Assembly: GCA_964475855.1 (NCBI GenBank)
Contig: CAYZAV010000002.1
Location: 51,933-115,932 of the forward strand
From: an uncultured Candidatus Saccharibacteria bacterium
Lineage (GTDB): Bacteria; Patescibacteriota; Minisyncoccia; Minisyncoccales; Staskawiczbacteraceae
Reading direction: 5' to 3'
DNA: 64,000 nt
The notes beneath the pieces are model-generated. The model made no database searches and had not been told where the DNA came from. It worked only from the letters and a program-made list of their open reading frames with translations. Below, in pieces: positions 11,918-64,000 of the stretch. Positions within the stretch are counted from its first letter, which is position 1. The number at the start of each line of letters is the position of its first letter. The translations under genes were made by a program, and so were the position numbers.

Positions 11918-12385
11918 ATGGCATTACTTGATTTTTTAAAAAACAAAAAAGAGAAAGATAAGGCTAACGAAAAAAAAGCCGACCTTTTGGTTTCTAAAGA
12001 AACCAAAACGCAGACCGACGCAGATAAATCGCAGATTGGCGCAGATAAGATCAGCGATAATCAGCGTAACATCAGCGTAAATCAGCGATTTTTACCTGGT
12101 AAAAATGAGAAATTTTCTTATACTATAGTAAAAGAACCGCATATTTCTGAAAAGGGGACTATTTTGTCTGAAAAGAATAAATATGTGTTCCGGGTGTATG
12201 ATCGCGCCAATAAGCCTGAAATTAAAAAAGCGGTTGAAGGAATTTATGGCGTAAATGTATTGGCCGTAAATGTGGTACGTATTCCCAAGAAAAAACGAAA
12301 GCTTGGCAGGACGGAAGGTTTTAAAAAAGCCTACAGTAAAGCCATTGTAACTATTAAAGAGGGGCAAAAGATTGAGATATTCTAA
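11918..12385 (+). CDS. rplW: 50S ribosomal protein L23 with a ~60-aa repeat-containing N-terminal extension
   Basis: Core YVFRVYDRANKPEIKKAVEGIYGV. No internal Met lies before the core. Confidence 0.9.
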   Translation: MALLDFLKNKKEKDKANEKKADLLVSKETKTQTDADKSQIGADKISDNQRNISVNQRFLPGKNEKFSYTIVKEPHISEKGTILSEKNKYVFRVYDRANKPEIKKAVEGIYGVNVLAVNVVRIPKKKRKLGRTEGFKKAYSKAIVTIKEGQKIEIF

Positions 12386-13598: not shown

Positions 13599-14045
13599 AT
13601 GGAAATAAAAGTCCACCTAAATAATATCAGGATCGCGCCACGGAAAACCCGGCAAATGATTGACGTGGTCCGCAATAAGGACGTGGCAGAAGCCCGCGCC
13701 CAGCTTGAGTTTACCGTAAAACGCGCGGCAAATCCGGTTTTGAAATTACTCAATAGCGCCGTAGCTTCCGCAGTCAATGACTTTAAATTACAAGAAGAGA
13801 ATTTATATATTTCCAAAATTACCGCCGATGAAGGTCCAACCTTAAAGCGCAGTTTTCCAATGTCGCGCGGAAGGGCATATCCGATTATGAAGAGGACCAG
13901 CCATATTACTCTGATATTATCAGAGAAATCCCAAGCACGAAATCAGAAATCCGAAACAAAGCAGAAAAACGAAACAAATTCCGAAACAAAAATAGAAGAT
14001 AAAAAGCCAGCTAGGAAAAGGGCAGTAAAAAAAGTTACCAAGTAA
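13599..14045 (+). CDS. rplV: 50S ribosomal protein L22 with a Lys/Glu-rich C-terminal extension
   Basis: L22 core RIAPRKTRQMIDVVR...; the tail is encoded by cgaaacaaa-type repeats. Confidence 0.93.
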   Translation: MEIKVHLNNIRIAPRKTRQMIDVVRNKDVAEARAQLEFTVKRAANPVLKLLNSAVASAVNDFKLQEENLYISKITADEGPTLKRSFPMSRGRAYPIMKRTSHITLILSEKSQARNQKSETKQKNETNSETKIEDKKPARKRAVKKVTK

Positions 14046-15136: not shown

Positions 15137-15328
15137 ATGAAAACCGCAGAATTACGGAAAAAAAATACCAAAGAATTGGAAAAATCGGTGGTGGATCTCA
15201 AAAAAAAGTTGAGCGACATCCGGTTTAAGTTTTCCAGCAATCAGATGAAGAACGTGAAAGAATTGAGCAATATCAAAAAAGAAATTGCCCGCAGTTTGAC
15301 TATTATCAACGAATTTACGAATAAATAA
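15137..15328 (+). CDS. rpmC: 50S ribosomal protein L29
   Basis: 63 aa, position between rplP and rpsQ, ELRKKNTKELEK pattern. Confidence 0.9.
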   Translation: MKTAELRKKNTKELEKSVVDLKKKLSDIRFKFSSNQMKNVKELSNIKKEIARSLTIINEFTNK

Positions 15329-15397
15329 CGAATTTGCGAATTAAAGTGTAATTAACGAGTGTATTAGCAAATTCGTAACACATTCGTAAATTCGCTG
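15309..15397. repeat. Word-built inverted repeat (ttcgtaaa/cgaattt words) spanning the rpmC 3' end and spacer
   Basis: acgaatttacgaat...acgaatttgcgaat pairs with gcaaattcgt...attcgtaaattcg. Related to 42563..42660. Confidence 0.6.
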
Positions 15398-15407
15398 ATT
15401 AACTAAC

Positions 15408-15641
15408 ATGCCAAAGAAGAAATTACAAGGAATTGTGGTGTCGGACAAGATGCAAAAGACCGTGGTGGTCAGCGTTGAAAGCGTTAAAGAGCATCCGAAA
15501 TATAAACGCCGCTACAAAACCCACAAAAAATACAAAGCCCACGACGAAAACAGCCAATACCATATTGGAGACACGGTTGTGATTGAAGAAACTATCCCGA
15601 TGAGTAAAGATAAGACATTTAAGGTAATTGCAAAAATTTAA
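15408..15641 (+). CDS. rpsQ: 30S ribosomal protein S17
   Basis: LQGIVVSDKMQKTVVV. Confidence 0.95.
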   Translation: MPKKKLQGIVVSDKMQKTVVVSVESVKEHPKYKRRYKTHKKYKAHDENSQYHIGDTVVIEETIPMSKDKTFKVIAKI

Positions 15642-19506: not shown

Positions 19507-19567
19507 CACGTAACATAGAACAGATAACAAATACGTTTTGTTTTATGTTCCATGTTTCATGTTCCAT
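19499..19567. repeat. Word-built inverted repeat (aacat/atgtt heptamers) between rplO and secY
   Basis: cacataacacgtaacatagaacagataacaaa / ttttgttttatgttccatgtttcatgttccatg. Confidence 0.6.
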
Positions 19568-19572
19568 GAAGA

Positions 19573-25089: not shown

Positions 25090-26802
25090 ATGAAATCCGC
25101 AGAACTTCGCCAAAAATTCCTGGATTTTTTTGAGAAAAAGGGGCATACAATTGTCTCTAGCGCTTCTTTAATTCCTGCAGAAACGGGAGCTGGGCAAAAG
25201 ACATTATTTATTACGGCGGGAATGCAGCCTTTGATACCGTTTTTATTAGGGGAAACGCATCCCGGGGGCAAGAGAATTGTTAATATTCAAAAATGCTTCA
25301 GGACCATTGATATTGATGAAGTCGGCGATGATACACATAACACTTTTTTCCAAATGTTGGGAAATTGGTCGCTGGGGGACTATTGGAAAAAAGAATCTAT
25401 TTCCTGGAGTTTTGAATTTTTAACGAAAGAATTGAATATTCCAATAGAAAAATTGGCAGTTTCTTGTTTTATTGGTGATGAACATGCGCCAAAAGATAAA
25501 GAGTCCGCTGAAATCTGGGAAAGCTTGGGAGTTACGAAAGAAAGAATCGCTTTTTTGCCAAAAGAGGATAACTGGTGGGGTCCGGTTGGAGAAACCGGTC
25601 CGTGCGGCCCCGACACAGAGATTTTTTATTGGAAAGCAAATGATGTGCCCGTGCCAAAAGAATTTGATTCGACTAATAAAAATTGGGTTGAGATTTGGAA
25701 TAATGTTTTCATGCAATATGTTAAGGATACCAATGGCAACTATGTTTTGGCAGAACAAAAAAATGTAGATACGGGTATGGGCTTTGAAAGGACGCTGGCT
25801 ATTTTGAATGGTTTTGAAAATATATACGAAACAGATTTGTTTGCGCCGGTTATGCATTTATTCCCAGGTCATGTTGATGAACGTAAAAAACGGATTATCG
25901 CCGACCACGCCAGGGCATCGGTATTTTTAATTTCAGATGGGGTGATTCCTTCAAATAAAGACCAAGGATATATATTGCGAAGATTGTTAAGAAGAATGAT
26001 GGTACATATGCGAGGCATTGAGCACGATATCTTTGAGCCGATTAAGAAAAATATAGAAATATACCAAGAAATATATGCTTTAGATGAGGGTAAAATTATA
26101 CCGGTAGTTAAAGAAGAGGCCGAGAAATTTGAAAAAACATTGGCGGCAGGATTAAAAGTGATTGAAAAAATAACCACTATTACCGGCAAAGAAGCTTTTT
26201 TACTCTATGAAACATATGGTTTTCCATTGGAAGTTTTAGAAGAAATACGCGAAGTTGTAAATCGAGAAGATTTTTTTGAAGAGTTAAAAAAACACCAAGA
26301 ATTATCTCGCACTGCTTCTGTGGGAATGTTTAAAGGGGGACTGGCGGATCATGATCCAAAAACTATAACATTGCACACAGCGCACCATTTGCTGTTGGCG
26401 GCTTTGCAGCAACTGTTAGGGTCAGAAGTAAAGCAAAAAGGCAGTAATATTACGCAAGAACGGTTACGGATTGATGTTTCGCTTGGGCGGAAAATTACCA
26501 AAGAAGAATTATTGGAGGTGGAAAATTTGGTTAATGAAAAAATTTCTGGCGCTCTGGATGTGGTAAAAAAAGAAATGTCGCTTTCGGAGGCACAGCAAAT
26601 TGGTGCAGAAATGGAATTTGGTGTAAAATACGGTAATACGGTGTCAGTTTACTTTATAGAAGAAAAAGATGGCACGTCGTTTAGTAAAGAATTTTGCGGC
26701 GGCCCGCATGTAAAAAATACATCGGAAATAGGTAAGTTTAAGATAATAAAAGAAGAAGCTTCTTCGCAGGGGGTGAGGAGGATAAAAGCAATCTTAGAGT
26801 AA
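25090..26802 (+). CDS. alaS: Alanyl-tRNA synthetase, compact form (570 aa, no C-Ala domain)
   Basis: MKSAELRQKFLDFFEKKGH start. Editing motifs HTAHHLL and CGGPHV. Start set at ATG 25090 with TTGCGG-17-TAGTAT-7 nt upstream. Confidence 0.9.
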   Translation: MKSAELRQKFLDFFEKKGHTIVSSASLIPAETGAGQKTLFITAGMQPLIPFLLGETHPGGKRIVNIQKCFRTIDIDEVGDDTHNTFFQMLGNWSLGDYWKKESISWSFEFLTKELNIPIEKLAVSCFIGDEHAPKDKESAEIWESLGVTKERIAFLPKEDNWWGPVGETGPCGPDTEIFYWKANDVPVPKEFDSTNKNWVEIWNNVFMQYVKDTNGNYVLAEQKNVDTGMGFERTLAILNGFENIYETDLFAPVMHLFPGHVDERKKRIIADHARASVFLISDGVIPSNKDQGYILRRLLRRMMVHMRGIEHDIFEPIKKNIEIYQEIYALDEGKIIPVVKEEAEKFEKTLAAGLKVIEKITTITGKEAFLLYETYGFPLEVLEEIREVVNREDFFEELKKHQELSRTASVGMFKGGLADHDPKTITLHTAHHLLLAALQQLLGSEVKQKGSNITQERLRIDVSLGRKITKEELLEVENLVNEKISGALDVVKKEMSLSEAQQIGAEMEFGVKYGNTVSVYFIEEKDGTSFSKEFCGGPHVKNTSEIGKFKIIKEEASSQGVRRIKAILE

Positions 26803-26897
26803 ATTATTCTAATTATACTAATTGCTCTAATTATTCTAACTATTTGGGTATTGGCATTTGATTAGGTCAATTAGAATAATTAGGTTAATTAGAAATT
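26802..26897. repeat. Word-built inverted repeat (ttctaatt words)
   Basis: aattattctaattatactaattgctctaattattctaac pairs with attaggtcaattagaataattaggttaattagaaatt. Confidence 0.6.
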
Positions 26898-30119: not shown

Positions 30120-30180
30120 CATGGAGCACGTGATATGGAACAATTAACCTAAGGTTATGTTTCATGTTTCATGCTTCATG
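30120..30180. repeat. Word-built inverted repeat (catg/gtttcat words) between rpsD and rpoA
   Basis: catggagcacgtgatatggaacaattaacc-taa-ggttatgtttcatgtttcatgcttcatg. Confidence 0.6.
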
Positions 30181-30190
30181 ATTAAAGTAT

Positions 30191-30970
30191 ATGATACCGC
30201 TACCAGTAGCGCCAATTGTAATCAAAAAAGGCAAAAACCAAGCCGTTTTTGAAGTGCAGGGATTGTATCCTGGTTATGGGGTAACCGTGGGAAACACTTT
30301 GCGCAGAGTATTGCTTTCCTCATTGGAGGGCGTAGCTGTTACCGAGGTGAAAATCAAAGGCGTGGCACACGAATTTTCCACCATTGCCGGCGTGCAGGAA
30401 GATGTGATTATGATTTTGTTGAACCTGAAAAATTTAAGGTTTAAAATACACGAAGGCACCACCCAAAAAGTGATACTTTCAGTAAAAGGTGAAAAAGAAG
30501 TGACCGGGGCCGATTTTGCACTTTCACCACAGGTGAAACTGGCGAATCCAGAGCTTCATATTGCCACCATTACTGATAAAAAAACTGAATTGGAAATTGA
30601 GATAAAAATTGAAAAAGGAATTGGGTATGAGCCAAAGGATCATCGGAAAATAAAAAGCACGGAAATTGGAGCGATTATATTGGATGCTATTTTTACACCG
30701 ATTAAAAACGTTAATTTTCAAGTGGAAAGCATGCGTATCGGCGACCGGACCGACTTTGACAAGTTATCACTTCAGATGGAAACCGACGGAACTCTGACCC
30801 CAGAAGAAGCGTTCTACGAAGCGTGCGATATTATCATCAAACACTTCAGTATTATTTTCGAAGGAAAAGGAATGGTAATGCCTGAAGCGATAACAGAAGG
30901 AGGGGAAGAAGAAAAACCGGCCAAAAAAGCAGCTGCCAAGAAAAAAGCGGTTGCTAAGAAAAAGAAATAA
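30191..30970 (+). CDS. rpoA: DNA-directed RNA polymerase alpha subunit, N-terminal domain only (259 aa, Lys-rich tail, no CTD)
   Basis: NTD motifs GNTLRRVLLSS, FTPIKNVNFQVE, RIGDRTDFDKL. Ends ...EEEKPAKKAAAKKKAVAKKKK*. Confidence 0.9.
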   Translation: MIPLPVAPIVIKKGKNQAVFEVQGLYPGYGVTVGNTLRRVLLSSLEGVAVTEVKIKGVAHEFSTIAGVQEDVIMILLNLKNLRFKIHEGTTQKVILSVKGEKEVTGADFALSPQVKLANPELHIATITDKKTELEIEIKIEKGIGYEPKDHRKIKSTEIGAIILDAIFTPIKNVNFQVESMRIGDRTDFDKLSLQMETDGTLTPEEAFYEACDIIIKHFSIIFEGKGMVMPEAITEGGEEEKPAKKAAAKKKAVAKKKK

Positions 30971-39936: not shown

Positions 39937-40719
39937 ATGAACCAGTTGGAATTTTTGAAGAAAATGTGGGATGGTGGGCAATTGGCTCATGCTTATATTT
40001 TTTCGGGGGCTGACATGGTGGGGTTGAAAAAAGCGGCCAATGAATTGCTCGGACATGCCGGCTGTAAATTTCCGGATGTGATTACACTTTCCAGTGCGCA
40101 AAGCGACAGTTCCATTAAAAATGAAAAGGATATGATGGAAATCGATATTGATCAGATTCGTCGTGTCCAGCAATTTTTATCATATAAATCATATAACGGG
40201 GGACTGAAAGCCGTGGTGGTTGAACATGCAGAACGGATGAACGTCGAAGCCCAAAACTGTTTTTTGAAAAATTTGGAAGAACCAAAGGGCCAGACATTGA
40301 TCATGTTATTATGCGACAAGCCTGAATATTTATTGCCCACCATTGCCTCACGCTGTCAGACAATCCGGTTTTCCGCAAAAAGCGAAGCGCAAGAAGCAGT
40401 ATTGCCCCAAGTTTTGCAAAATGTAATTAATGGGGACTTGGCTGAAAAATTCAAGTTTGCCAAAACAGCCAACCTGGAGGGAGAAAATTTCGAGAATATG
40501 TTAGCGGGTCTACAGCGACATTTTCGGAATTTACTTCTGGATAAAATCCAGGGAGAGACTAATCTACCTGCCTCGCCGGCAGGCGGGCGAATTACATCCG
40601 AATATACGAATGAAAAGATGGTATCGGTACTGCGGCAGATTGAAACATTGCAGCACCAGGCGGCAACCACCAATCTTAATAACAAACTGGCATTGGAAAT
40701 ATTATTACTTGAGTTATAA
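39937..40719 (+). CDS. holB: DNA polymerase III delta' subunit
   Basis: LAHAYIFSG..., NCFLKNLEEP, LPTIASRCQ motifs. Start at MNQLEFL. Confidence 0.8.
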   Translation: MNQLEFLKKMWDGGQLAHAYIFSGADMVGLKKAANELLGHAGCKFPDVITLSSAQSDSSIKNEKDMMEIDIDQIRRVQQFLSYKSYNGGLKAVVVEHAERMNVEAQNCFLKNLEEPKGQTLIMLLCDKPEYLLPTIASRCQTIRFSAKSEAQEAVLPQVLQNVINGDLAEKFKFAKTANLEGENFENMLAGLQRHFRNLLLDKIQGETNLPASPAGGRITSEYTNEKMVSVLRQIETLQHQAATTNLNNKLALEILLLEL

Positions 40720-40791
40720 AGTTCATAAAGTTATAAAGTTCATAAAGATACGAAGAACTTTAAAAACTTTACGAACTTTCAAACTTTATAA
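40715..40791. repeat. Word-built inverted repeat (aaagtt 9-mers)
   Basis: ttataaagttcataaagttataaagttcataaag pairs with actttaaaaactttacgaactttcaaactttataa. Paired aaagtt cores are separated by 3-nt mismatches. Confidence 0.6.
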
Positions 40792-41359: not shown

Positions 41360-41429
41360 AAAATTTACAATATACAATACACAATATACAAACAAATTTT
41401 GTAAATTGTAGATTGTGTATTGTATATTT
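41360..41429. repeat. Word-built inverted repeat (tacaata heptamers)
   Basis: tacaatacacaat (41372-41384) pairs perfectly with attgtgtattgta (41412-41424). Confidence 0.6.
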
Positions 41430-41433
41430 AGTA

Positions 41434-42561
41434 ATGATAATTACTTTGTTGATTGCATTTTTAAGTCTTATTGCCCTCATGATCATCCATGAATTCGGGC
41501 ATTTTATCATTGCTAAAAAATTCGGGGTGAAGGTGGAGGAATTCGGCATTGGATATCCGCCGCGGCTTTTTGGCAAGCAATTTGGCGATACGCTGTATTC
41601 CATAAATTTGGTGCCACTTGGCGCGTTTGTGAAAATTTATGGAGAAGAGGGCGAGGTAGTTTCTGACGTTGATAATTACCGTAGTTTTTCGGGACTTGCC
41701 ATTTACAAGCGTATGTTGATTGTCCTTGGCGGGGTGATTGCGTTTTGGATTGCCAGCATTATTATTTTTTCAGTAATGTTTTTGACCGGCGCCACAATGC
41801 CTGTTGGTGACCAGGATGTGGCCGGATTCACCGATATCACCATCACTATTTCTGAAGTGGCGGAAAATTCCCCAGCTCACGATTCGGGACTCAAAGAGGG
41901 TGATAAGATAGTCAGTGTCCAAGTTGGCCAAGTACGCACGGATATCAAAAAAGTGGCAGATTTTCAGAAAATCGTGCAAGAGAATAAAAGTAAACAAATA
42001 ATCGTAGCCGTTGTGCGTCAAGGGGAAGAACTTTATATTCCATTAATCCCGCGAGTTGAATATCCCGAAGGTCAGGGGCCGACAGGGGTGGTGTTGGAGC
42101 GTCTTGACACTATTATCCAAAAAGCCCCCTGGTATGAAGCTCCGTTCCGTGGAGCCGCGTATTGCTGGAAGGTGACCGTTGATATCACCTATGGCATATT
42201 TTCTTTTTTTGCCAATATCTTCCGGGGACAGGGTGTTCCTTCGGGCGCTGAATTCGCCGGGCCGGTGGGGATTACCATTTTCCTGGCACGCGCAGCAAGT
42301 TACGGAGCAGGATTTTTCCTTTACTTTATCGGGTCTATTTCTGTGCTTTTGGCTATCTTTAATTTACTGCCCATCCCGGCGCTAGACGGGGGGAAGTTAC
42401 TATTTTTAATCATTGAAAAGGTGAAGGGGTCGGCCGTTTCAGTAAAAATAGAGGGTTGGCTGACTATTTTCTTTTTTATTCTATTGATTTCCATGTCGCT
42501 ATTTATTACCATAAAATTTGATTTCCCGCGAGTAATGGAATTTTGGAAAGCAGGGTTGTAA
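41434..42561 (+). CDS. rseP: RIP metalloprotease RseP (M50 with PDZ domain)
   Basis: HEFGHF zinc motif, PDZ-like AENSPAHDSGLKEGDKIVSV, LPIPALDGG. Confidence 0.88.
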   Translation: MIITLLIAFLSLIALMIIHEFGHFIIAKKFGVKVEEFGIGYPPRLFGKQFGDTLYSINLVPLGAFVKIYGEEGEVVSDVDNYRSFSGLAIYKRMLIVLGGVIAFWIASIIIFSVMFLTGATMPVGDQDVAGFTDITITISEVAENSPAHDSGLKEGDKIVSVQVGQVRTDIKKVADFQKIVQENKSKQIIVAVVRQGEELYIPLIPRVEYPEGQGPTGVVLERLDTIIQKAPWYEAPFRGAAYCWKVTVDITYGIFSFFANIFRGQGVPSGAEFAGPVGITIFLARAASYGAGFFLYFIGSISVLLAIFNLLPIPALDGGKLLFLIIEKVKGSAVSVKIEGWLTIFFFILLISMSLFITIKFDFPRVMEFWKAGL

Positions 42562-42562
42562 T

Positions 42563-42660
42563 CAGCGAATTTGCTAATATATTACGAATTTACGAATGTG
42601 GCGAACGAGCGATCACGTAAAGTGTATTCGTAAATTCGTAACTAATTCGTAAATTCGTTG
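42563..42660. repeat. Word-built inverted repeat (ttcgtaaa words), related to 15309..15397
   Basis: cagcgaatttgctaatatattacgaatttacgaatg pairs with tattcgtaaattcgtaactaattcgtaaattcgttg. Confidence 0.6.
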
Positions 42661-42668
42661 ATGATACT

Positions 42669-45071: not shown

Positions 45072-45356
45072 ATGATTTCAAAAGAAGACGTACAGCATAT
45101 TGCCAAGTTGGCGCGATTGGAACTGGGTCAGCAAGAAGCGATAAAAATGCAGCAGGATATGTCGGCGATTTTAGATTATTTTGATTTGTTGAAAAAAGCG
45201 CCAAAAGTTACAAAGGTTACAAAAGTGACAAAGGTAAAAAATAATGGATTGCGCGACGATAAGGTGGGGCAACAAAATAGTGCTTTGGCGGGAGAACTAA
45301 TCAATGCCGCGCCGGATAAAAAGGATGGATATGTCAAAGTTAAGGCAATACTATAA
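45072..45356 (+). CDS. gatC: Glu/Asp-tRNA amidotransferase subunit C (contains a KVTKVTKVTKV repeat)
   Basis: 94 aa, VQHIAKLARLEL...ILDYFD..., precedes gatA. Confidence 0.88.
   Translation: MISKEDVQHIAKLARLELGQQEAIKMQQDMSAILDYFDLLKKAPKVTKVTKVTKVKNNGLRDDKVGQQNSALAGELINAAPDKKDGYVKVKAIL
45207..45233 (+). repeat. Three tandem in-frame 9-bp units (same family) inside gatC
   Basis: gttacaaag gttacaaaa gtgacaaag, translated (K)VTKVTKVTK. Confidence 0.8.
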
Positions 45357-47574: not shown

Positions 47575-47745
47575 GAATTTATGAACGAAGTGAATAAATT
47601 CACCTCGGAAATCAGGCTTAATTATATCGTATACCTTGCGGCCTGATTTCCGCTGGATACCTTATTCGGAAATCAGGCTTAATTATATCGTATACCTTGC
47701 GGCCTGATTTACGCGGGATACCTTATTTTCTCGCAGGATACCTTT
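47575..47745 (-). repeat. Dispersed leader-proximal element, copy 3, with a tandem 61-bp duplication
   Basis: Units 47606-47666 and 47667-47727 differ at 2 positions. A partial third ggatacctttatt box follows. Confidence 0.75.
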
Positions 47746-47766: not shown

Positions 47767-48165
47767 ATGATACCGCGTTTAAAGAAAAAAAACCAGAAAC
47801 ATCCGTATAAAAAGATGCTGATAATGCTTGGCGGAGTTTGTCTTTTACTGATTGCCACCGGGTTGGTGGTGGCTAGTATTAATATGTACCAAAAAAAACG
47901 TGAGCTTTCTTACCAAGTCAAAAGCCTGGAAAATAAAATGCTCCAAATGCAGCAAAAAAACCAGGAACTCAAGCAAGGCATTGCAAAATCCGACGATGAG
48001 CAGTATATAGAAAAGGTGGCGCGCGAAGAACTTGACCTGCAAAAACCGGGGGAAAAAGTATTTTCATTTATCCGGGCAGAAAAGGAAGCGTCCGCAGAGG
48101 TAGAACAATCAGTAAATTTTTGGCAAGCATGGGTCGCCTGGGTTGCGGGTATTGTTCAGTGGTAG
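47767..48165 (+). CDS. FtsB/DivIC-like septum formation initiator
   Basis: N-terminal TM, coiled coil, VAREELDLQKPGEKVF motif. The 3' end overlaps tRNA-Gly by 21 nt. Confidence 0.65.
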   Translation: MIPRLKKKNQKHPYKKMLIMLGGVCLLLIATGLVVASINMYQKKRELSYQVKSLENKMLQMQQKNQELKQGIAKSDDEQYIEKVAREELDLQKPGEKVFSFIRAEKEASAEVEQSVNFWQAWVAWVAGIVQW

Positions 48166-48982: not shown

Positions 48983-50057
48983 ATGGATACGAGGTTAACT
49001 ATTCAAGAGTTAGAGCAAAAGGTCCACGTATTGGTGGACCGGCTTTGATGTGGATAGCAAGGAAAAAGAGCTACAGGAGCTGGAGCGCCAGGCGGGCATG
49101 CCAGATTTTTGGAATGACCACGCCTCGGCGGCAGTAGTTAGTCAGCAGATTTCAGGATTAAAAGAAGAACTGCAAACGGTTGAAGCACTTAAAAAAGAAC
49201 TACAGGATTTAAAAGAGTTGAATGCTTTGGATCAGGTTGATGAAATGGCTTTTGTAAGTTTGAGAAAACGAATTGAAAAAGAAGAATTTCGGATTTTTTT
49301 AAGCGGCAAGCATGACAAAAGCAACGCCATTCTGGAAATTTTTTCGGGAGCGGGCGGAGTGGATGCCCAGGATTGGGTGACTATGGTATTAAGGATGTAC
49401 CAGCGTTATTGTGCGACAAAGGGGTTTGAGGTGAATATTTTGCACCAGTCGTTTGGCGAAGGCGGCGGGCCTGATGGGCGCATTGGTACCAAAAATGTGA
49501 CCTTAGAAATACGTGGAAAATATGCTTATGGTTTTTTGAAAAAAGAAGCGGGGGTGCATCGGTTGGTCAGGCAATCACCCTTTTCCGCCCAAAAATTACG
49601 TCATACTTCATTTGCTTTGGTGGAAGTGATGCCCGAGATTGAAGAAAGCGCAGAATTAGAGCTAAAACCGGAAGAATTGCGGGTTGATACGTTTCGCGCT
49701 TCCGGCCCCGGCGGGCAGTATGTTAATAAAACCGAATCGGCTATTCGCATTACACATATTCCCACCGGCATTGCCGTTGCCAGCCAGTCTGAACGGAGTC
49801 AGGGCAGAAACCGCGAGCACGCCATGAAAATTTTATACTCAAAACTACACCAACTAAAAGAACAGCAGCACAAAAAAGAATTGAAAGAAATAAAAGGCGA
49901 CAGCGTCAGTGCAAGTTGGGGAAACCAGATCAGAAGTTATGTGCTACACCCATATAAAATGGTCAAAGATTTACGTACCCAATATGAAACTTCCCAGGCA
50001 GAAAAAGTATTGGACGGTGATTTGGAGGAATTCATTCAGGCTGAACTAAAAATATAA
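48983..50057 (+). CDS. prfB: Peptide chain release factor 2, requires a programmed +1 frameshift at CTT TGA (49043-49048)
   Basis: ORF0 is MDTRLTIQELEQKVHVLVDRL, ending at stop TGA 49046-49048. The +1 frame continues DVDSKEKELQ..., with SPF and GGQ motifs downstream. Confidence 0.9.
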
Positions 50058-50737
50058 TGATCCAATTTCAAAAAGTTACTAAAATTTACGAGCCCAATGT
50101 GACGGTACTCCAAGACGTTTCTTTTGATGTAAAAGAGGGGGAGTTTGTTTCCATTGTGGGGAAATCCGGAGCTGGAAAAACAACGCTCATCCGTATGGTG
50201 CTTGGGTTAGAAACGCCTACGTATGGCAGTGTATTTTTCAACGGTCAAAACGTCAGCCAGGTGGATGGCGCAGCTCTTCAGCAAATCCGCCGGAAAATCG
50301 GGGCTATTTACCAGGATTATAAATTACTGTCAGGAAGGACGGTGTACGAAAATGTAGCGTATGTCATGGAAACCAGTGGCCGGGAAAATTCTGAAATTGA
50401 ACAAGAAGTGCCAAAAGTATTGGAAGTGATTGGTTTGCAGGATAAAATGGAAAATTTCCCGCATGAACTTTCTGGCGGCGAACAACAAAGACTGGCCATT
50501 GCCCGTGCCTTGGTGAATTACCCGGATGTGATTATTGCCGATGAACCGACGGGCAACTTAGACCCGTATAATGCCTATGAAGTGTTAAGCTTGCTGGAAA
50601 AAATCAACCGAGCCGGAAAAACCGTGATTTTAGCAACCCACGACCGCGAGATGGTAAACCGACTGCAAAAACGCGTCATCACACTGGAAAATGGCCGAGT
50701 CATAAGGGATGAAGTTAAAGGAAGATTTGTTATTTAA
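50057..50737 (+). CDS. ftsE: Cell division ATP-binding protein FtsE
   Basis: Walker A GKSGAGKTT, LSGGEQQR signature; precedes ftsX. Confidence 0.9.
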   Translation: MIQFQKVTKIYEPNVTVLQDVSFDVKEGEFVSIVGKSGAGKTTLIRMVLGLETPTYGSVFFNGQNVSQVDGAALQQIRRKIGAIYQDYKLLSGRTVYENVAYVMETSGRENSEIEQEVPKVLEVIGLQDKMENFPHELSGGEQQRLAIARALVNYPDVIIADEPTGNLDPYNAYEVLSLLEKINRAGKTVILATHDREMVNRLQKRVITLENGRVIRDEVKGRFVI

Positions 50738-50750
50738 TTATTCTAAATAA

Positions 50751-51665
50751 ATGCTTACCAATTTTAAACGGGTAGTAAACTTTGCACTGGTTGATTTTCA
50801 TCGTAACAAGGGCATGTCCGTGGCCGCTATTTTTGTGCTGACCATTACCATTTTATTGGTGACGGGATTATTTTTTTTGCAGGGTATTAACCATTACCTG
50901 ATCCAAAGCCTGCAAAACAAAATTGACATCACGGCATATTTTCAAGAAAACACTTCAGAGGAAGATATCTTGGGTGTGCGGGAAGAACTGATTAAAGATG
51001 CTCCGGAAATAAAAAACATTGAGTATGTTTCGCGCGAAGATGCGCTGGCAAATTTTAACGAAAAGCATAAAGACAATCCTGTTTTTTCCCAGGCACTTAG
51101 TGAGGTGGGGGACAATCCGTTTTTACCATCACTAAACATTACCACCAGCGGCACTGCCAATGATTACGAACAAGTGGCAAAAACGTTGGAGCAGGAAAAA
51201 TTCAGCCCATTCATAGAAAAGGTTGATTTTTCGCAGAAAAAGGATACTATAGAGAAAGTATTTTCGCTTACCTCAAGCGTAAATCGGGTGGGTATTAGTT
51301 TGGGGTTAGTGCTGATATTGATTGTTATCTTGGTGGTCTTTAACACCATAAAACTGGTAGTTGATGCTTCGCGCGAAGAAATCGCCACCCAGCGCATTGT
51401 GGGGGCTTCCAGCTGGTTTGTGCGCGCGCCGTTTGTGATTGAGGGGGCGCTGTTTGGGGCCATTGCCTTTATCCTTTGTTTTTTCATGGCCCTGGCCGTT
51501 TGCTACTTTTTATCGCCCATATTAGAGTTGATTATGCCAGGTTTTTCCCTGTTTTCCTATTTCCTTTCCAATATGCTGCTATTGATCGCCATCCAGTTTG
51601 GGGTAGGGGTAGGGCTAGGCGTAGTAGCAAGTTTTATTGTGGTGAGGAAATATTTGAAAGCGTAA
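50751..51665 (+). CDS. ftsX: Cell division permease-like protein FtsX
   Basis: 304 aa, 4 TM with a large periplasmic loop; follows ftsE. Confidence 0.85.
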   Translation: MLTNFKRVVNFALVDFHRNKGMSVAAIFVLTITILLVTGLFFLQGINHYLIQSLQNKIDITAYFQENTSEEDILGVREELIKDAPEIKNIEYVSREDALANFNEKHKDNPVFSQALSEVGDNPFLPSLNITTSGTANDYEQVAKTLEQEKFSPFIEKVDFSQKKDTIEKVFSLTSSVNRVGISLGLVLILIVILVVFNTIKLVVDASREEIATQRIVGASSWFVRAPFVIEGALFGAIAFILCFFMALAVCYFLSPILELIMPGFSLFSYFLSNMLLLIAIQFGVGVGLGVVASFIVVRKYLKA

Positions 51666-51673
51666 TAATATAT

Positions 51674-51752
51674 GTGACAAAAGTAGCAAAGGAAGCAGAA
51701 GATACAAAGGCCTTTGAGCCATCTGTATCCTTTGTTACGTTTGAAACTTTTT
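51674..51752. repeat. Hairpin built from GTKRCAAAG-type 9-mers
   Basis: gtgacaaaa gtagcaaag gaagcagaa gatacaaag pairs with cctttgagccatctgtatcctttgttacgtttgaaac. Confidence 0.55.
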
Positions 51753-51758
51753 GATCAT

Positions 51759-51829
51759 TGCGGGATCGTCTAATGGTAGGACACATCCCTCTGAAGGATG
51801 TTATCTTGGTTCGAGTCCAAGTCCCGCAG
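51759..51829 (+). tRNA. tRNA-Gln (CTG)
   Basis: Acceptor tgcggga/tcccgca (U1-A72), anticodon loop ctCTGaa, T arm cttgg-ttcgagt-ccaag. Confidence 0.85.
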
Positions 51830-51963
51830 CAGTCTAGGCCTACCGAGACGGGTCATAAAACCCGCTCGGTAACCAGATTCTTTTCCTTTGATAGCAAACC
51901 GGCTGAGCGCCGCATTCAGAACAGAAATTCGCCCAAAAGGCGATTTTTTGTTAGAATCAACTT

Positions 51964-62440: not shown

Positions 62441-63952
62441 ATGGCAAAGCCCAAGAAAAAAAAGAAACTAGTGCTTGCACGAAAAAAACCGGTAAAAAAA
62501 CCGAAAAAAGTTTTAGTAAAGAAAAAACCGATTACCAAGAGAATAAAAGCCAAGACCTTCCGCGGAGTTTCGCGTAAAATTCAGATTGATTCCGCGCCGG
62601 TAGCAGCCTTTCCGGCGGAGGCATTTTTCAAGGCGAAAATAAAAGTAATTGGCATTGGCGGGGGAGGTGGGTCTATTGTTTCCGAAATTGGCAGGTCTTT
62701 GAACAAGGCCACATTTGTGGTGGCGGATACTGATGAACGCGCGTTTAAAAAACGCCAGGGCATCAAACAGTTTTTATTCGGCCAGGAATTGACACATGGT
62801 TTGGGTACCGGATTAAACACCGACTTGGCACAGCGGGCCGCTGAAAGTGAAAAAGAAAATATCGCTAAATTATTTGACGGCCAGGATATTGTTATTTTTA
62901 TCGCCTGTTTGGGCGGAGGATTAGGAAGTGGTGCCACCCAAATATTCGCCGAGGCGGCCAAAGATTTCGGGGGAATTACCTTTGGTATTTTTACGCTGCC
63001 ATTTAAATTTGAAGGCAAAAACAAGCAAAAAATCGCAGCCAAGGCGTTGCGGGAACTACGTAAATCACTTAATGTTTCCATTACTATTCCCAACGAGCGT
63101 ATTTTTAAAATCATCCAGGAAAACACGGCCATTACTGATGCGTTCAGTACGGTTAACCGCAGCCTGATAGAATCGTTGGAAAGTTTGATAGATTTGATTT
63201 ACAATCCCGGTGTCATTAATATTGACTTCGCCGATCTGCGCGCTATTTTAAAGGGACGGGGGAATTTGGCGTTTTTAAATACGGCCGAGGCTTCCGGGGC
63301 TAATAGGGCGGATACCATCATTCATGAAATTTTGCATAACCCCCTATACCAAAGTAATAATTTTTCCGCCGAAAAAGTGCTATTTAACATTGCGAGCGGG
63401 GGAAATTTAAGCATGTTTGAGGTGGATAAAATAAGCCGGGTCATTTCTGAACATAACCAGTCCGCCAAGATTATTTTCGGGATTTCCAAAGACAATTCTC
63501 TGAAAAATAAAATCAAGACGACGCTGCTCATGACGGGGGCACCGCTTGGGGTGGAGCCCGATGCTACAAAGGTTACAAAGGTTGCAAAGGTGGCAGAGGT
63601 CGCAAAGGCTCCGGAAGCTACAAAGGTGACAAAGGCTACAAAAGTGGCAAAGACCACAAAGGTGGCAAAGGTGGTCTCGCCTTCGCCTAAGGCTTCGGCG
63701 AAACAAAGAAAGAAAAAAGTGGTGCCGGCGTCAAAAACCCCACCGCTTCAAAATGTTCCCGTTTTTTCCAATGTGTACGAGCCGGCCGAAAATTCGCGTA
63801 AATTGAGCATTGTTGAGCCACCACAGAAAAAAGCCATCAGGCGCACAGCATTGGAAGTGAAAAAAGCCGAAGAAATACAAGAACAAAGGCAATCCGATCA
63901 GGAAAAAGAGTGGGAAATTCCAGCATTTTTAAGAAAAATAAAGATCAAATAA
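62441..63952 (+). CDS. ftsZ: Cell division protein FtsZ with a ~60-aa Lys-rich N-terminal extension and a repeat-built C-terminal linker
   Basis: GIGGGGGS, ACLGGGLGSGA tubulin-signature region. C-terminal peptide EWEIPAFLRK. Confidence 0.9.
   Translation: MAKPKKKKKLVLARKKPVKKPKKVLVKKKPITKRIKAKTFRGVSRKIQIDSAPVAAFPAEAFFKAKIKVIGIGGGGGSIVSEIGRSLNKATFVVADTDERAFKKRQGIKQFLFGQELTHGLGTGLNTDLAQRAAESEKENIAKLFDGQDIVIFIACLGGGLGSGATQIFAEAAKDFGGITFGIFTLPFKFEGKNKQKIAAKALRELRKSLNVSITIPNERIFKIIQENTAITDAFSTVNRSLIESLESLIDLIYNPGVINIDFADLRAILKGRGNLAFLNTAEASGANRADTIIHEILHNPLYQSNNFSAEKVLFNIASGGNLSMFEVDKISRVISEHNQSAKIIFGISKDNSLKNKIKTTLLMTGAPLGVEPDATKVTKVAKVAEVAKAPEATKVTKATKVAKTTKVAKVVSPSPKASAKQRKKKVVPASKTPPLQNVPVFSNVYEPAENSRKLSIVEPPQKKAIRRTALEVKKAEEIQEQRQSDQEKEWEIPAFLRKIKIK
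63563..63670 (+). repeat. Twelve tandem in-frame 9-bp units (GTKRCAAAG family) inside ftsZ
   Basis: gctacaaag gttacaaag gttgcaaag gtggcagag gtcgcaaag gctccggaa gctacaaag gtgacaaag gctacaaaa gtggcaaag accacaaag gtggcaaag. Confidence 0.85.
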
Positions 63953-64000
63953 AGTTGATAGTTATTAGTTTATAGTTTTAGTTAAGTGGTTATCAGTTAA

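Follow-up and report, generated by a model that had tools for sequence, protein, structure and literature searches.

A 9-bp word repeated in frame in the FtsZ linker recurs in gatC and in an intergenic hairpin of a Candidatus Staskawiczbacteria genome

The C-terminal linker (CTL) of FtsZ lies between the globular core of the protein and its conserved C-terminal peptide, and is predicted to be disordered. Its composition and length are reported to vary widely, its charge patterning to be important for function and selection to act on the linker independently of the core (PMC9586301; bioRxiv 10.1101/2025.11.25.690400). The linker described here resembles other CTLs in its position, its predicted disorder, its weakly conserved sequence and its typical length and charge, but differs from them in that one third of it is a 9-bp repeat at the nucleotide level; our literature search found no paper on tandem DNA repeats inside the FtsZ linker. 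The repeat itself resembles in-frame coding minisatellites (VNTRs), which are attributed to slipped-strand mispairing: its units stand head to tail with a length that is a multiple of three, they have codons in common beyond what codon usage predicts, their number varies among related lineages and they occupy a low-complexity, structurally tolerant segment of the protein. It departs from such minisatellites in having degenerate units that are nonetheless stable enough for one-to-one orthology between species, in being hosted, as is its counterpart in gatC, by a core housekeeping gene and not by a surface or contingency gene, and in conserving one four-fold wobble position across lineages, a feature not expected from simple slippage.

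The word of which the repeat is made is also present in an intergenic hairpin. Short words found both in hairpins after genes, formed by inverted pairs of the word, and in frame inside genes are known from the DUS/USS uptake sequences of Neisseriaceae and Pasteurellaceae. REP/BIME elements are short imperfect palindromes in the spacers between co-directional genes. Rickettsia palindromic elements (RPEs) are documented in frame inside genes, as whole elements of about 150 bp inserted as additions to the protein (PMC10969869). For the present locus we moderately favour the view that the ftsZ block is an old in-frame minisatellite acting as linker filler, and that what links the three sites is a constrained word and not an ongoing invasion.

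We analysed a 64,000-nt stretch of DNA, called the window below, from Candidatus Staskawiczbacteria (Parcubacteria/CPR) of groundwater. The features of its ftsZ gene are as follows.

62441..63952, + strand: ftsZ, 503 aa (translation; Pfam Tubulin, 9.4e-31, and FtsZ_C, 1.7e-15)
63563..63670, + strand: 9-bp minisatellite of 12 in-frame head-to-tail units, FtsZ residues 375-410 (TRF, unit list, codon counts)
63563..63607, + strand: units 1-5 (ATK VTK VAK VAE VAK), lineage-specific extras (comparison with the relative L005)
63608..63670, + strand: units 6-12 (APE ATK VTK ATK VAK TTK VAK), ancestral block (unit-by-unit orthology with L005)
63908..63937, + strand: conserved C-terminal peptide EWEIPAFLRK, intact, 3' of the array (translation)

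The protein, which has 2330 homologs at E <= 1e-30, consists of a Lys-rich N-terminal extension (residues ~1-65), a globular GTPase core (66-366) containing the Tubulin/FtsZ GTPase domain (PF00091, 66-226) followed by the FtsZ C-terminal domain (PF12327, 277-366), a disordered CTL (367-489), the C-terminal peptide (490-499) and an IKIK tail. A Lys-rich N-terminal extension, of 42-81 aa, is seen in FtsZ of the clade as well. In the C-terminal peptide, 52 homologs show no variation at W491, I493, F496 and R498 and at least 90% conservation at E492, P494, A495 and L497. AlphaFold2 gave pLDDT values of 80-96 for the core and of 40-47 for residues ~370-465, modelled as coil without secondary structure; on this prediction the array is within an intrinsically disordered linker. 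At 123 aa the linker is close to the clade median of 120 aa (5-95% range 103-143), and minus the array it would measure 87 aa. Its net charge per residue is 0.114, compared to 0.103 in the clade, and its charge-patterning score, which is approximate, is typical of the clade. Its sequence is unalignable across 120 homologs, and the linkers of distant FtsZ proteins are rich in Lys, Val, Ala and Pro and without repeats.

The array measures 108 bp and is translated as ATKVTKVAKVAEVAKAPEATKVTKATKVAKTTKVAK, a series of (V/A)(T/A)K tripeptides with a net charge of +8. TRF described it as 12.0 copies of period 9 with 67% matches and zero indels. The units are about 70% alike, identical neighbours occurring at most two in succession, and each of units 1-5 is identical at 8-9 of 9 positions to one among units 7, 8, 10 and 12. 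The codons for Lys are AAG in 9 of 10 cases (35% before Val in the ORFs of the window), those for the middle Thr are ACA in 6/6 (26% before Lys) and those for the middle Ala are GCA in 5/5 (30% before Lys). Since the codons common to the units exceed codon and codon-pair usage by so much, the ftsZ array is a repeat at the DNA level, as a first-pass annotation of this DNA had proposed, and not a mere peptide motif. The annotation had placed the same word at two further sites, and all three are found where it located them, with a period of 9 that stays in frame in the genes.

45072..45356, + strand: gatC, 94 aa (Pfam GatC, 3.5e-11)
45207..45233, + strand: three in-frame 9-bp units, GTTACAAAG GTTACAAAA GTGACAAAG (VTK x3; KVTKVTKVTK), in the GatC connecting loop
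50751-51665: ftsX, flanking the hairpin
51674..51745, + strand: intergenic hairpin (inverted repeat, arms 76-77% complementary; RNA folding)
51759-51830: tRNA-Gln, flanking the hairpin

How well the word unites these sites depends on how it is written. The strict form GTKRCAAAG, given in the annotation, matches 5 of 12 units in ftsZ, 2 of 3 in gatC and 0 of 4 in the hairpin, and the looser RYNRCAAAG matches nine units in ftsZ, two in gatC and one in each arm of the hairpin; 'word family' was thus a fair description, but to speak of 'copies' was generous for the hairpin. A run of three units (RCAAARGYNRCAAARGYNRCAAAR) is found 4 times in the window and in none of 100 shuffles. When 36-mers of the ftsZ array are compared with the rest of the window, gatC scores highest (30/36), followed by the hairpin arms (27/36 and 26/36); 12 windows simulated with a Markov-2 model reached at most 23-24. 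A segment at 15511-15546 (24/36), which we take to be part of the gene for ribosomal protein S17, was rejected as a further site, as it has no repeat and matches at chance level. The heptamer ACAAAGG is observed 21 times against 12.4 expected, with 9 occurrences in the three sites and 12 elsewhere. We rejected an uptake-sequence-like word on these counts: the locus shares with DUS/USS a short word present both in a post-gene hairpin and in frame within genes, but theirs are hugely over-represented genome-wide, whereas outside the three sites ACAAAGG is no commoner than expected by chance.

Two relatives carry the 9-nt word at the same place in ftsZ, L005 (78% amino acid identity over aligned columns) and L009 (72%), with 7 and about 5 units respectively, compared to 12 here. 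The block ASE VTK VTK ATK VAK VPK VAK of L005 matches units 6-12 of the window one to one, with 46/63 nt identical, and L005 has VVAAKK where the window has units 1-5. An array at the same place in two relatives, with seven units matching, indicates that the array is old and that its copy number has changed over evolutionary time. By this sequence comparison, an array of at least 5-7 units is shown to predate the split of the three lineages, the lineage of the window having gained five. The moderate likeness of the units, together with the conserved order of seven of them between species, suggests that turnover is slow. The assembly GCA_034680565.1, on a separate point, contains at least two different ftsZ genes, and L005 and L008 may therefore stem from different organisms.

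GatC aligns end to end with the solved GatC chains 3H0L_C and 2DF4_C, and its three units occupy the position at which canonical GatC has an acidic 'DTxxVEP' segment and leave the length unaltered, the loop being as long as that of 60 orthologs and of the solved structures. A 63%-identical ortholog (L006/L007) has the same word at the same place, as GTGACAAAG GTTACAAAA GCTACCAAG, and again in three units. The consensus of this loop in 30 relatives is LKKAPKxxKxxK, with a Lys-periodic PKxxKxxK. A general preference for NCA codons in GatC loops was considered and rejected, because the loops of 80 metagenome loci are mostly non-repetitive and NCA is not enriched in them relative to flanking genes; the word is therefore limited to a small sub-clade. 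Orthologs encoding the same peptide without nucleotide periodicity, which would have spoken against a DNA-level repeat, were not what the comparison returned: L005 and L009 for ftsZ and L006 for gatC all use the same word.

These comparisons bear on the suggestion, made in the first-pass annotation, that the loci are candidates for length polymorphism in essential proteins. Comparing copy number in relatives was the check proposed there, and its outcome is mixed: the ftsZ number has changed between species, with 7 shared units and 5 extra, but gatC shows no change (3 vs 3). That the arrays are present-day hypervariable tracts, a contingency locus giving FtsZ and GatC length variants within populations, seems to us most improbable. 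The tandem 9-bp structure, which keeps the reading frame, and the spread of ftsZ copy numbers would suit such a locus, but the units are degenerate, with no more than two identical in a row, seven of them have kept their order through saturated synonymous divergence, and gatC has three units and a constant loop length in two lineages that are only 63% identical. The ftsZ gene is also identical in four assemblies of the source organism, a weak test because these contigs have 0 differences over 4.8-12.7 kb and hence zero power for polymorphism.

The third site lies between ftsX and tRNA-Gln. Arm 1 of the hairpin (51674-51709) reads GTGACAAAA GTAGCAAAG GAAGCAGAA GATACAAAG, and arm 2 (51710-51745) is an imperfect inverted copy of it. 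The hairpin lies 8 nt 3' of the stop codon of ftsX, and the predicted stem ends 15 nt 5' of tRNA-Gln; its RNA has a minimum free energy of -27.1 kcal/mol (z = -4.07), a value that none of 200 shuffles reached. It is 54/70 identical to L005:7143-7212, a non-orthologous spacer located after eno in the relative, and the next best unrelated site in the 482 kb searched is below 40/70. In one arm of the relative's hairpin, 16 nt are exactly reverse-complementary to ftsZ units 1-2. This homology at a different site, which strengthens the link between hairpin and arrays drawn in the annotation, is new. The relative's hairpin alone is not significantly stable (z = -1.2), yet both of its arms still keep the words. 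The source genome was sampled over ~84 kb and its nearest relative over ~28 kb, with one copy of the CAAAG hairpin in 74 kb of the former and one in the 28 kb of the latter; no further copies were present in three array-free relatives (L210-L212, ~56 kb), in 212 loci or in viral contigs, and no Rfam family matches it. A consensus scan did not call it as an intrinsic terminator, and its stem is long and A/U-rich with a U5 run beginning 5 nt past the stem, and is not a G+C-rich stem with a direct U-run. A role at the end of a transcript is thus a putative one. A single stretch of the ftsZ array as source of a hairpin arm was rejected, as in-register matches range from 17 to 27 of 36 with the two best registers tied; the word common to hairpin and arrays could go back to one ancient copying event or to convergence.

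Evidence for a constraint on the word comes from its wobble positions. Between the window and L005, the seven orthologous units agree at the wobble of codon 1 in 2/7 cases, at that of Lys in 2/7 and at that of codon 2 in 5/7. Synonymous sites elsewhere are near saturation between the window and its relatives, with 29-38% same codon compared to 27-29% by chance. Over the four-fold wobble sites of six arrays, A is found at codon 1 in 1 of 30 cases and at codon 2 in 29 of 32 (Fisher p = 3e-13), which is likewise a new finding. Since the codon-2 wobble stays A while the neighbouring wobble bases are randomised, the word is under a nucleotide-level constraint, and its presence in gatC and in a conserved intergenic hairpin as well indicates that it is maintained at the level of DNA or RNA.

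Convergence at the peptide level would offer a simpler account, in which (V/A)(T/A)K is favoured in two unrelated flexible segments, the shared 9-mer and the likeness of the hairpin are by-products of codon usage and A-rich composition, and the sites are unconnected at the DNA level. We consider this unlikely. It would fit the Lys-periodicity already present in the GatC loop of the clade, the general richness of the clade's FtsZ linkers in Lys, Val, Ala and Pro, and the lack of ACAAAGG enrichment outside the three sites (12 vs 12.4 expected); a scan of a genome collection with RCAAARGYNRCAAARGYNRCAAAR also returned at least 120 loci in unrelated phyla, so that 9-bp (A/V)(T/A)K arrays of this kind are widespread. 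However, the codon choice of the arrays departs strongly from codon and codon-pair usage, codon 2 differs sharply from codon 1 in its wobble A, and arrays are rare in the clade itself, where tripeptide-K arrays of at least 4 units were found only in ftsZ and gatC in ~480 kb of DNA. The hairpin, moreover, is non-coding and so cannot be explained by peptide-level selection; in the window only gatC matches the array better than its arms do, both of which exceed the simulated maximum of 24, and it is conserved in a relative.

The annotation had read the shared word as a sign that intergenic repeats can seed or invade coding sequence. In its strongest form this would mean that a mobile palindromic word element, comparable to the RPEs, inserted in frame and left the ftsZ and gatC arrays as translated remnants. 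The two cases have in common that part of a gene is translated from sequence also present in an intergenic palindrome, and that essential genes are involved, and the Rickettsia precedent lends the idea some weight. The occurrence of the hairpin at different intergenic sites in two genomes also suggests mobility or turnover, and one reading frame is open across the hairpin (ORF 51476-51754); arm 1 would give VTKVAKEAEDTK, by our reading a peptide resembling that of the FtsZ array. Invasion of the genes is nevertheless unsupported, because the expected footprint of an insertion is missing: unlike RPEs and MITEs, the arrays add no length (linker 123 vs 120 aa, GatC loop unchanged, both equal to array-free orthologs), consist of tandem 9-mers and represent only one arm type, the 'sense' one, with no inverted (CTTTG-type) arm in ftsZ or gatC. 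No target-site duplication was evident by eye in the ftsZ and gatC flanks, the hairpin is limited to one copy per genome sampled and is missing from the viral contigs searched, and the ftsZ array is ancient, with units orthologous one to one. We thus regard invasion as quite unlikely.

We return to the reading that we favour, an old minisatellite linked to the other sites by its word. The anatomy of the array suggests that it would have arisen and grown by duplication of the 9-bp unit at the DNA level, through replication slippage or unequal exchange, the 9-bp period preserving the reading frame during growth. The array would encode a Lys-rich (V/A)(T/A)K spacer that is tolerated, and probably needed as filler, because selection on the linker acts on bulk properties (a length of ~120 aa, a net positive charge) and not on sequence; for the filler role the basis is the comparison of lengths. 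The array of gatC, three units of the same word, is a separate one that leaves length unchanged, and lies in the loop whose PKxxKxxK pattern is clade-wide. The hairpin after ftsX would be one copy of a conserved element that contains the word in both orientations and changes place between genomes. As one of a wider class of hairpins whose periodic arms occupy short spacers between genes of the same direction, it is most likely a transcript-end or processing stem-loop. What would link the three sites is the DNA word itself, its core CAAA held by nucleotide-level constraint. Slippage and peptide selection alone would randomise the codon-2 wobble, which is not the case, and we infer that something else acts on the word, a cause outside both processes.

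One candidate for this cause is a regulatory RNA pairing, in which the pyrimidine-rich arm 2, in the ftsX 3' region and tRNA-Gln leader, would pair in trans with the CAAAG cores of the ftsZ, and possibly the gatC, mRNA, so that selection holds the word. For a duplex between arm 2 and the ftsZ array the predicted energy is -40.0 kcal/mol, compared to a background mean of -19.9 (sd 4.0) and a best value of -32.8 among 974 window segments; arm 2 with arm 1 gives a weaker duplex (-29.5). The relative shows the same order, with -32.4 for arm 2 and the ftsZ array and -14.5 for arm 2 and arm 1 (background mean -20.4, best of 442 segments -33.3), and keeps the words in both arms of a hairpin that is not significantly stable by itself. 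Pairing would also provide the nucleotide-level cause that the conservation of the codon-2 wobble A needs, and FtsEX and FtsZ act in the same process. However, the complementarity restates the known sequence similarity and is not independent evidence, two genomes are too few for covariation, and the variation at the Lys wobble bases has no counterpart in arm 2. Pairing in trans would also face competition from intramolecular pairing, and as the two genomes have the element at different loci, a link to ftsX is not conserved. Pairing as the force that holds the word is accordingly, in our judgement, very unlikely.

The same low credence attaches to the broader proposition that the 9-nt word is a functional RNA-level signal, with the CCUUUG pyrimidine arm pairing in several registers with the CAAAG cores of ftsZ and gatC. 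Expression of ftsZ would be coupled to another transcript, here the 3' end of ftsEX; selection for pairing would explain the 29/32 wobble A amid randomised synonymous sites; and the disordered linker of an essential protein would at the same time offer a regulatory RNA a multivalent landing site. If the word is a relic of slippage only, the array is an ordinary coding minisatellite. The locus would illustrate how the disordered linker of an essential division protein is built and resized by 9-bp duplication in an ultra-small bacterium, with length and charge within the norm of the clade. The persistence of the word in a non-coding hairpin that moves between spacers indicates that something beyond protein sequence acts on it, for which RNA pairing, a binding factor or a biased repair process are candidates. 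Dual constraints of this kind are difficult to detect in lineages that have not been cultured.

The hairpin after ftsX is not the only one with periodic arms in this DNA. A ACGAATTT family is represented at 15305-15399 and 42561-42662, an AATATAC family at 41362-41428 and at L001:13531-13645, and a TAGTTAT/AACTAAA family after ftsZ and at L001:14571-14648. Taken as a class, the word hairpins are imperfect palindromes present in several spacers, which is REP-like, the CAAAG hairpin being limited to one copy per genome sampled. They share with REP/BIME their small size, their place between co-directional genes, the recurrence of families at several sites, the presence of one family at non-orthologous spacers here and in relatives, and a plausible role at transcript ends; they differ in that their arms are themselves tandem arrays of 7-9-nt words, drawn from several word families, and in that no transposase of the RAYT type was seen in the part of the genome available. 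Hairpins of these kinds are also present in the relatives.

Our analysis confirmed the observation made in the first-pass annotation that related 9-bp words occur in ftsZ, in gatC and in a spacer hairpin. The interpretation offered there is supported in part. The best-supported reading takes the ftsZ array as an in-frame minisatellite, old and slow to evolve, that serves as filler of the FtsZ linker; gatC has a sister array that leaves its length unchanged, and a conserved word hairpin accompanies both. This reading does not account for the nucleotide-level constraint seen on the word they share. The window matches metagenome contig k141_502662 (ENA ERZ27247820, 403,851 bp) with 0 differences, and among the homologs of its FtsZ and GatC the named ones belong to Candidatus Staskawiczbacteria (Parcubacteria/CPR). 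From the source genome ~84 kb was examined, and from the nearest relative ~28 kb.

Genes and arrays discussed in the text
62441-63952: ORF, FtsZ (Pfam Tubulin and FtsZ_C)
63563-63670: ftsZ array, 12 head-to-tail 9-bp units in frame, residues 375-410
45072-45356: ORF, GatC, followed by GatA
45207-45233: gatC array, GTTACAAAG GTTACAAAA GTGACAAAG
50057-50737: ORF, FtsE
50751-51665: ORF, FtsX
51759-51830: tRNA-Gln

The ftsZ units read GCTACAAAG GTTACAAAG GTTGCAAAG GTGGCAGAG GTCGCAAAG GCTCCGGAA (units 1-6) and GCTACAAAG GTGACAAAG GCTACAAAA GTGGCAAAG ACCACAAAG GTGGCAAAG (units 7-12). The spacer 3' of ftsX holds an imperfect palindrome whose arm 1 is GTGACAAAA GTAGCAAAG GAAGCAGAA GATACAAAG and whose fold is predicted at -27.1 kcal/mol (z = -4.07). 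All three sites were found as first described, although the strict pattern GTKRCAAAG fits just 5/12 ftsZ units, 2/3 gatC units and 0/4 hairpin units. The likeness among them exceeds chance: a three-unit pattern occurs 4 times vs 0 in 100 shuffles, and the segments elsewhere in the window most similar to the ftsZ array lie in gatC (30/36) and in the two arms of the hairpin (27/36 and 26/36), with a top match of 23-24 in Markov-simulated windows. Codon choice in the ftsZ array (Lys AAG 9/10, middle-codon Thr ACA 6/6, middle-codon Ala GCA 5/5) is far from that of the window's long ORFs in matching codon context (35%, 26% and 30%, respectively); the word is thus enriched beyond codon usage, contrary to one objection foreseen in the first-pass annotation, and the array is a repeat at the DNA level, beyond a peptide motif alone. 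An uptake-sequence-like, genome-wide word was rejected, as ACAAAGG is at chance level away from the three sites. Arrays of this kind are common beyond the clade: a scan of a genome collection gave at least 120 loci in unrelated phyla.

The word stands at the same position in the two FtsZ sequences closest to this one, so that a second objection, the same peptide in relatives encoded without nucleotide periodicity, also falls. The units are GCGTCAGAA GTTACAAAA GTGACAAAG GCAACAAAG GTTGCAAAA GTGCCTAAA GTTGCAAAA in relative L005 (78% identity) and GTGGCAAAA GTGACAAAG GAAACAAAA GCGGCAAAG GTGGCAAAA in relative L009 (72% identity). Comparison of copy number aligned units 6-12 of the window (APE ATK VTK ATK VAK TTK VAK) one to one with the seven of L005 (ASE VTK VTK ATK VAK VPK VAK; 46/63 nt identical), leaving units 1-5 as five extra copies that have no L005 counterpart, each matching unit 7, 8, 10 or 12 at 8-9 of 9 positions. 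The array is therefore older than the split of these lineages and has gained five units here; among the homologs compared, the FtsZ of more distant relatives has no array. The proposal of a present-day hypervariable locus does not fit units that are ~70% alike, with seven in the same order between species, nor the constant gatC array. No difference of any kind separates the four available assemblies, which makes them uninformative on present-day length variation.

The array starts 8 residues beyond the final strand of the globular domain; downstream of it, the C-terminal peptide EWEIPAFLRK is intact. In an AlphaFold2 model built with 52 homologs as input, the core has pLDDT 80-96 and residues ~370-465 have pLDDT 40-47 and no secondary structure. 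The linker is ordinary in length (123 aa vs a median of 120, 5-95% range 103-143, in 100 homologs), net charge per residue (0.114 vs 0.103) and approximate charge-segregation score (0.24 vs 0.21); without the array it would be 87 aa, under the 5th percentile. Every clade member has a Lys-rich FtsZ spacer in some form, and the array is thus one route to this clade-wide feature. In agreement with this, published work reports that the FtsZ linker is selected independently of the core and that its charge patterning matters functionally (PMC9586301; bioRxiv 10.1101/2025.11.25.690400). Elsewhere in the protein, the N-terminal extension (residues 1-65; 62441-62635), partly encoded by a 12-bp repeat at 62482-62509, has 24 Lys/Arg and 2 acidic residues and is predicted to be disordered; extension length is 42-81 residues in the five closest homologs examined (P0001-P0005), and this part of the 52-homolog consensus is Lys-rich as well. 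A helix, RRTALEVKKAEEIQEQRQSDQEKEW (residues 470-492; 63848-63916), is confidently predicted (pLDDT ~80) directly upstream of the C-terminal peptide and is conserved in the clade (consensus KKAIRRSALEIKKAEExEENKKSxQEKEW); the conserved C-terminal module of this FtsZ therefore far exceeds the usual peptide in length. In assembly GCA_034680565.1, the source of L005, L008 and L210, ftsZ occurs in at least two different versions (P0002 and P0004; 74% and 73% identical to the query), located on separate contigs in the same gene neighbourhood; the assembly therefore holds more than one Staskawiczbacteria-like genome, so that L005 and L008 may come from different organisms.

In GatC, alignment with 60 orthologs gave no insertion, and a profile built from 30 relatives could be aligned over its full length with the solved chains 3H0L_C and 2DF4_C, placing the array opposite their acidic 'DTxxVEP' loop. 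Close relatives have the consensus LKKAPKxxKxxK; the Lys spacing of three residues therefore predates the repeat. One ortholog (L006/L007, 63% identical) has GTGACAAAG GTTACAAAA GCTACCAAG at the same position, another (L008, 71% identical) a degenerate PKPKTAAKTTKAK. Across another 80 metagenome loci, the loop mostly lacks repeats. The gatC array shows no change in copy number. The connecting loop (45195-45240) is strongly basic, PKVTKVTKVTKVK, with PKxxKxxK clade-wide, and is acidic in solved structures (DTENVEP / DTEGVEP): a charge reversal at constant length.

The word hairpin has a counterpart in L005, GTAACAAAAGTAACAGAAGAAACAGAAGCGACAAAGGCCCTTGACTCCTTTGTAACCTTTGTCTCATTTG, in the spacer between eno and a phosphoglycerate-mutase-family gene, with 54/70 ungapped identities to window positions 51674-51743; across 482 kb of clade DNA, unrelated sites all stay below 40/70. 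Arm 2 of the L005 hairpin matches ftsZ units 1-2 of the window exactly, in reverse complement, over 16 nt and has 14-15-nt exact matches to the gatC arrays. The two positions are not orthologous: in the close relative L008 the ftsX-tRNA-Gln spacer has no such hairpin, and the spacer after eno in the window genome has a different word hairpin. No copy was found in ~56 kb from three relatives lacking the ftsZ array. The hairpin is thus a conserved element that appears to change place between genomes; it matches no known RNA family. The suggestion that such words invaded the genes is not supported: ftsZ and gatC show neither added length nor an inverted arm, and the hairpin was found once in 74 kb of this genome and once in 28 kb of the relative, short of demonstrating a multi-copy family.

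The hairpin is part of a wider class in the window and relatives, palindromes whose arms are tandem 7-9-nt words of limited vocabulary and which occupy many spacers between co-directional genes.

Palindromes with periodic arms
Window: 15305-15399, 42561-42662, 41362-41428, 40712-40788, 26802-26894, 19539-19568, 30157-30180, 63953-64000
Relative L001: 11513-11605, 13531-13645, 14571-14648, 15853-15931, 17928-18013
Relative L005: 2897-2993
Relative L008: 3015-3091, 5406-5494, 10306-10376
Relative L211: 15020-15115

Their word families include ACGAATTT, AATATAC/TTGTATA, TAGTTAT/AACTAAA, ATGTTTC, AGTTCATAA and AATTATTCT; the same ones are found at several spacers as well as in related genomes, where their positions are not orthologous. 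They look like a REP-like system whose arms are periodic; we found no description in the literature of such a system in Parcubacteria.

Between the window genome and the relatives compared above, synonymous sites are nearly saturated (same codon at four-fold sites 29-38%, chance 27-29%). Within the arrays, the wobble positions behave differently from one another. Across six arrays of ftsZ and gatC, the middle-codon wobble base is A in 29/32 units (Fisher p = 3e-13 vs codon 1, where T or G accounts for 27/30 and A for 1/30), and the Lys wobble base is either A or G, with free drift; where units of the window and L005 are orthologous, their wobble bases agree in 2/7 (codon 1), 2/7 (Lys) and 5/7 (codon 2) units. 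Genome-wide codon-pair usage does not account for this, NCA before Lys amounting to 26-30% here and 15-30% in the relative. The core CAAA is held at the nucleotide level by some constraint. Pairing of CCUUUG words in hairpin arm 2 with the CAAA cores is a candidate source: the duplex predicted between arm 2 and the ftsZ array (-40.0 kcal/mol) is stronger than the best of 974 background segments (-32.8) and than arm 2 with arm 1 (-29.5), and the relative gives -32.4 and -14.5 for array and arm 1, respectively. We nevertheless regard such pairing as very improbable, because these figures restate sequence similarity already known and rest on two genomes.

Other repeats were seen in the window. 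A 61-bp direct repeat (47605-47727; two copies, 96% identical), each copy with an internal hairpin GGAAATCAGGC...GCCTGATTTCC and the pair followed by a third, partial copy of the tail, GGATACCTT, lies in the spacer upstream of a DivIC-family gene (47767-48165). RpoA (30191-30970) is just 259 aa, with the N-terminal dimerisation and insert domains present, no match to the alpha C-terminal domain, and a Lys/Ala-rich end, KPAKKAAAKKKAVAKKKK, from an 18-bp repeat at 30923-30963. Ribosomal proteins L23 (11918-12385) and L22 (13599-14045) have low-complexity extensions from short tandem repeats, N-terminal and ~69 residues long in L23 (repeats 12005-12087) and a C-terminal tail of ~40 residues in L22 (repeat 13940-13978); they too are core proteins with repeat-built tails, but the words differ.
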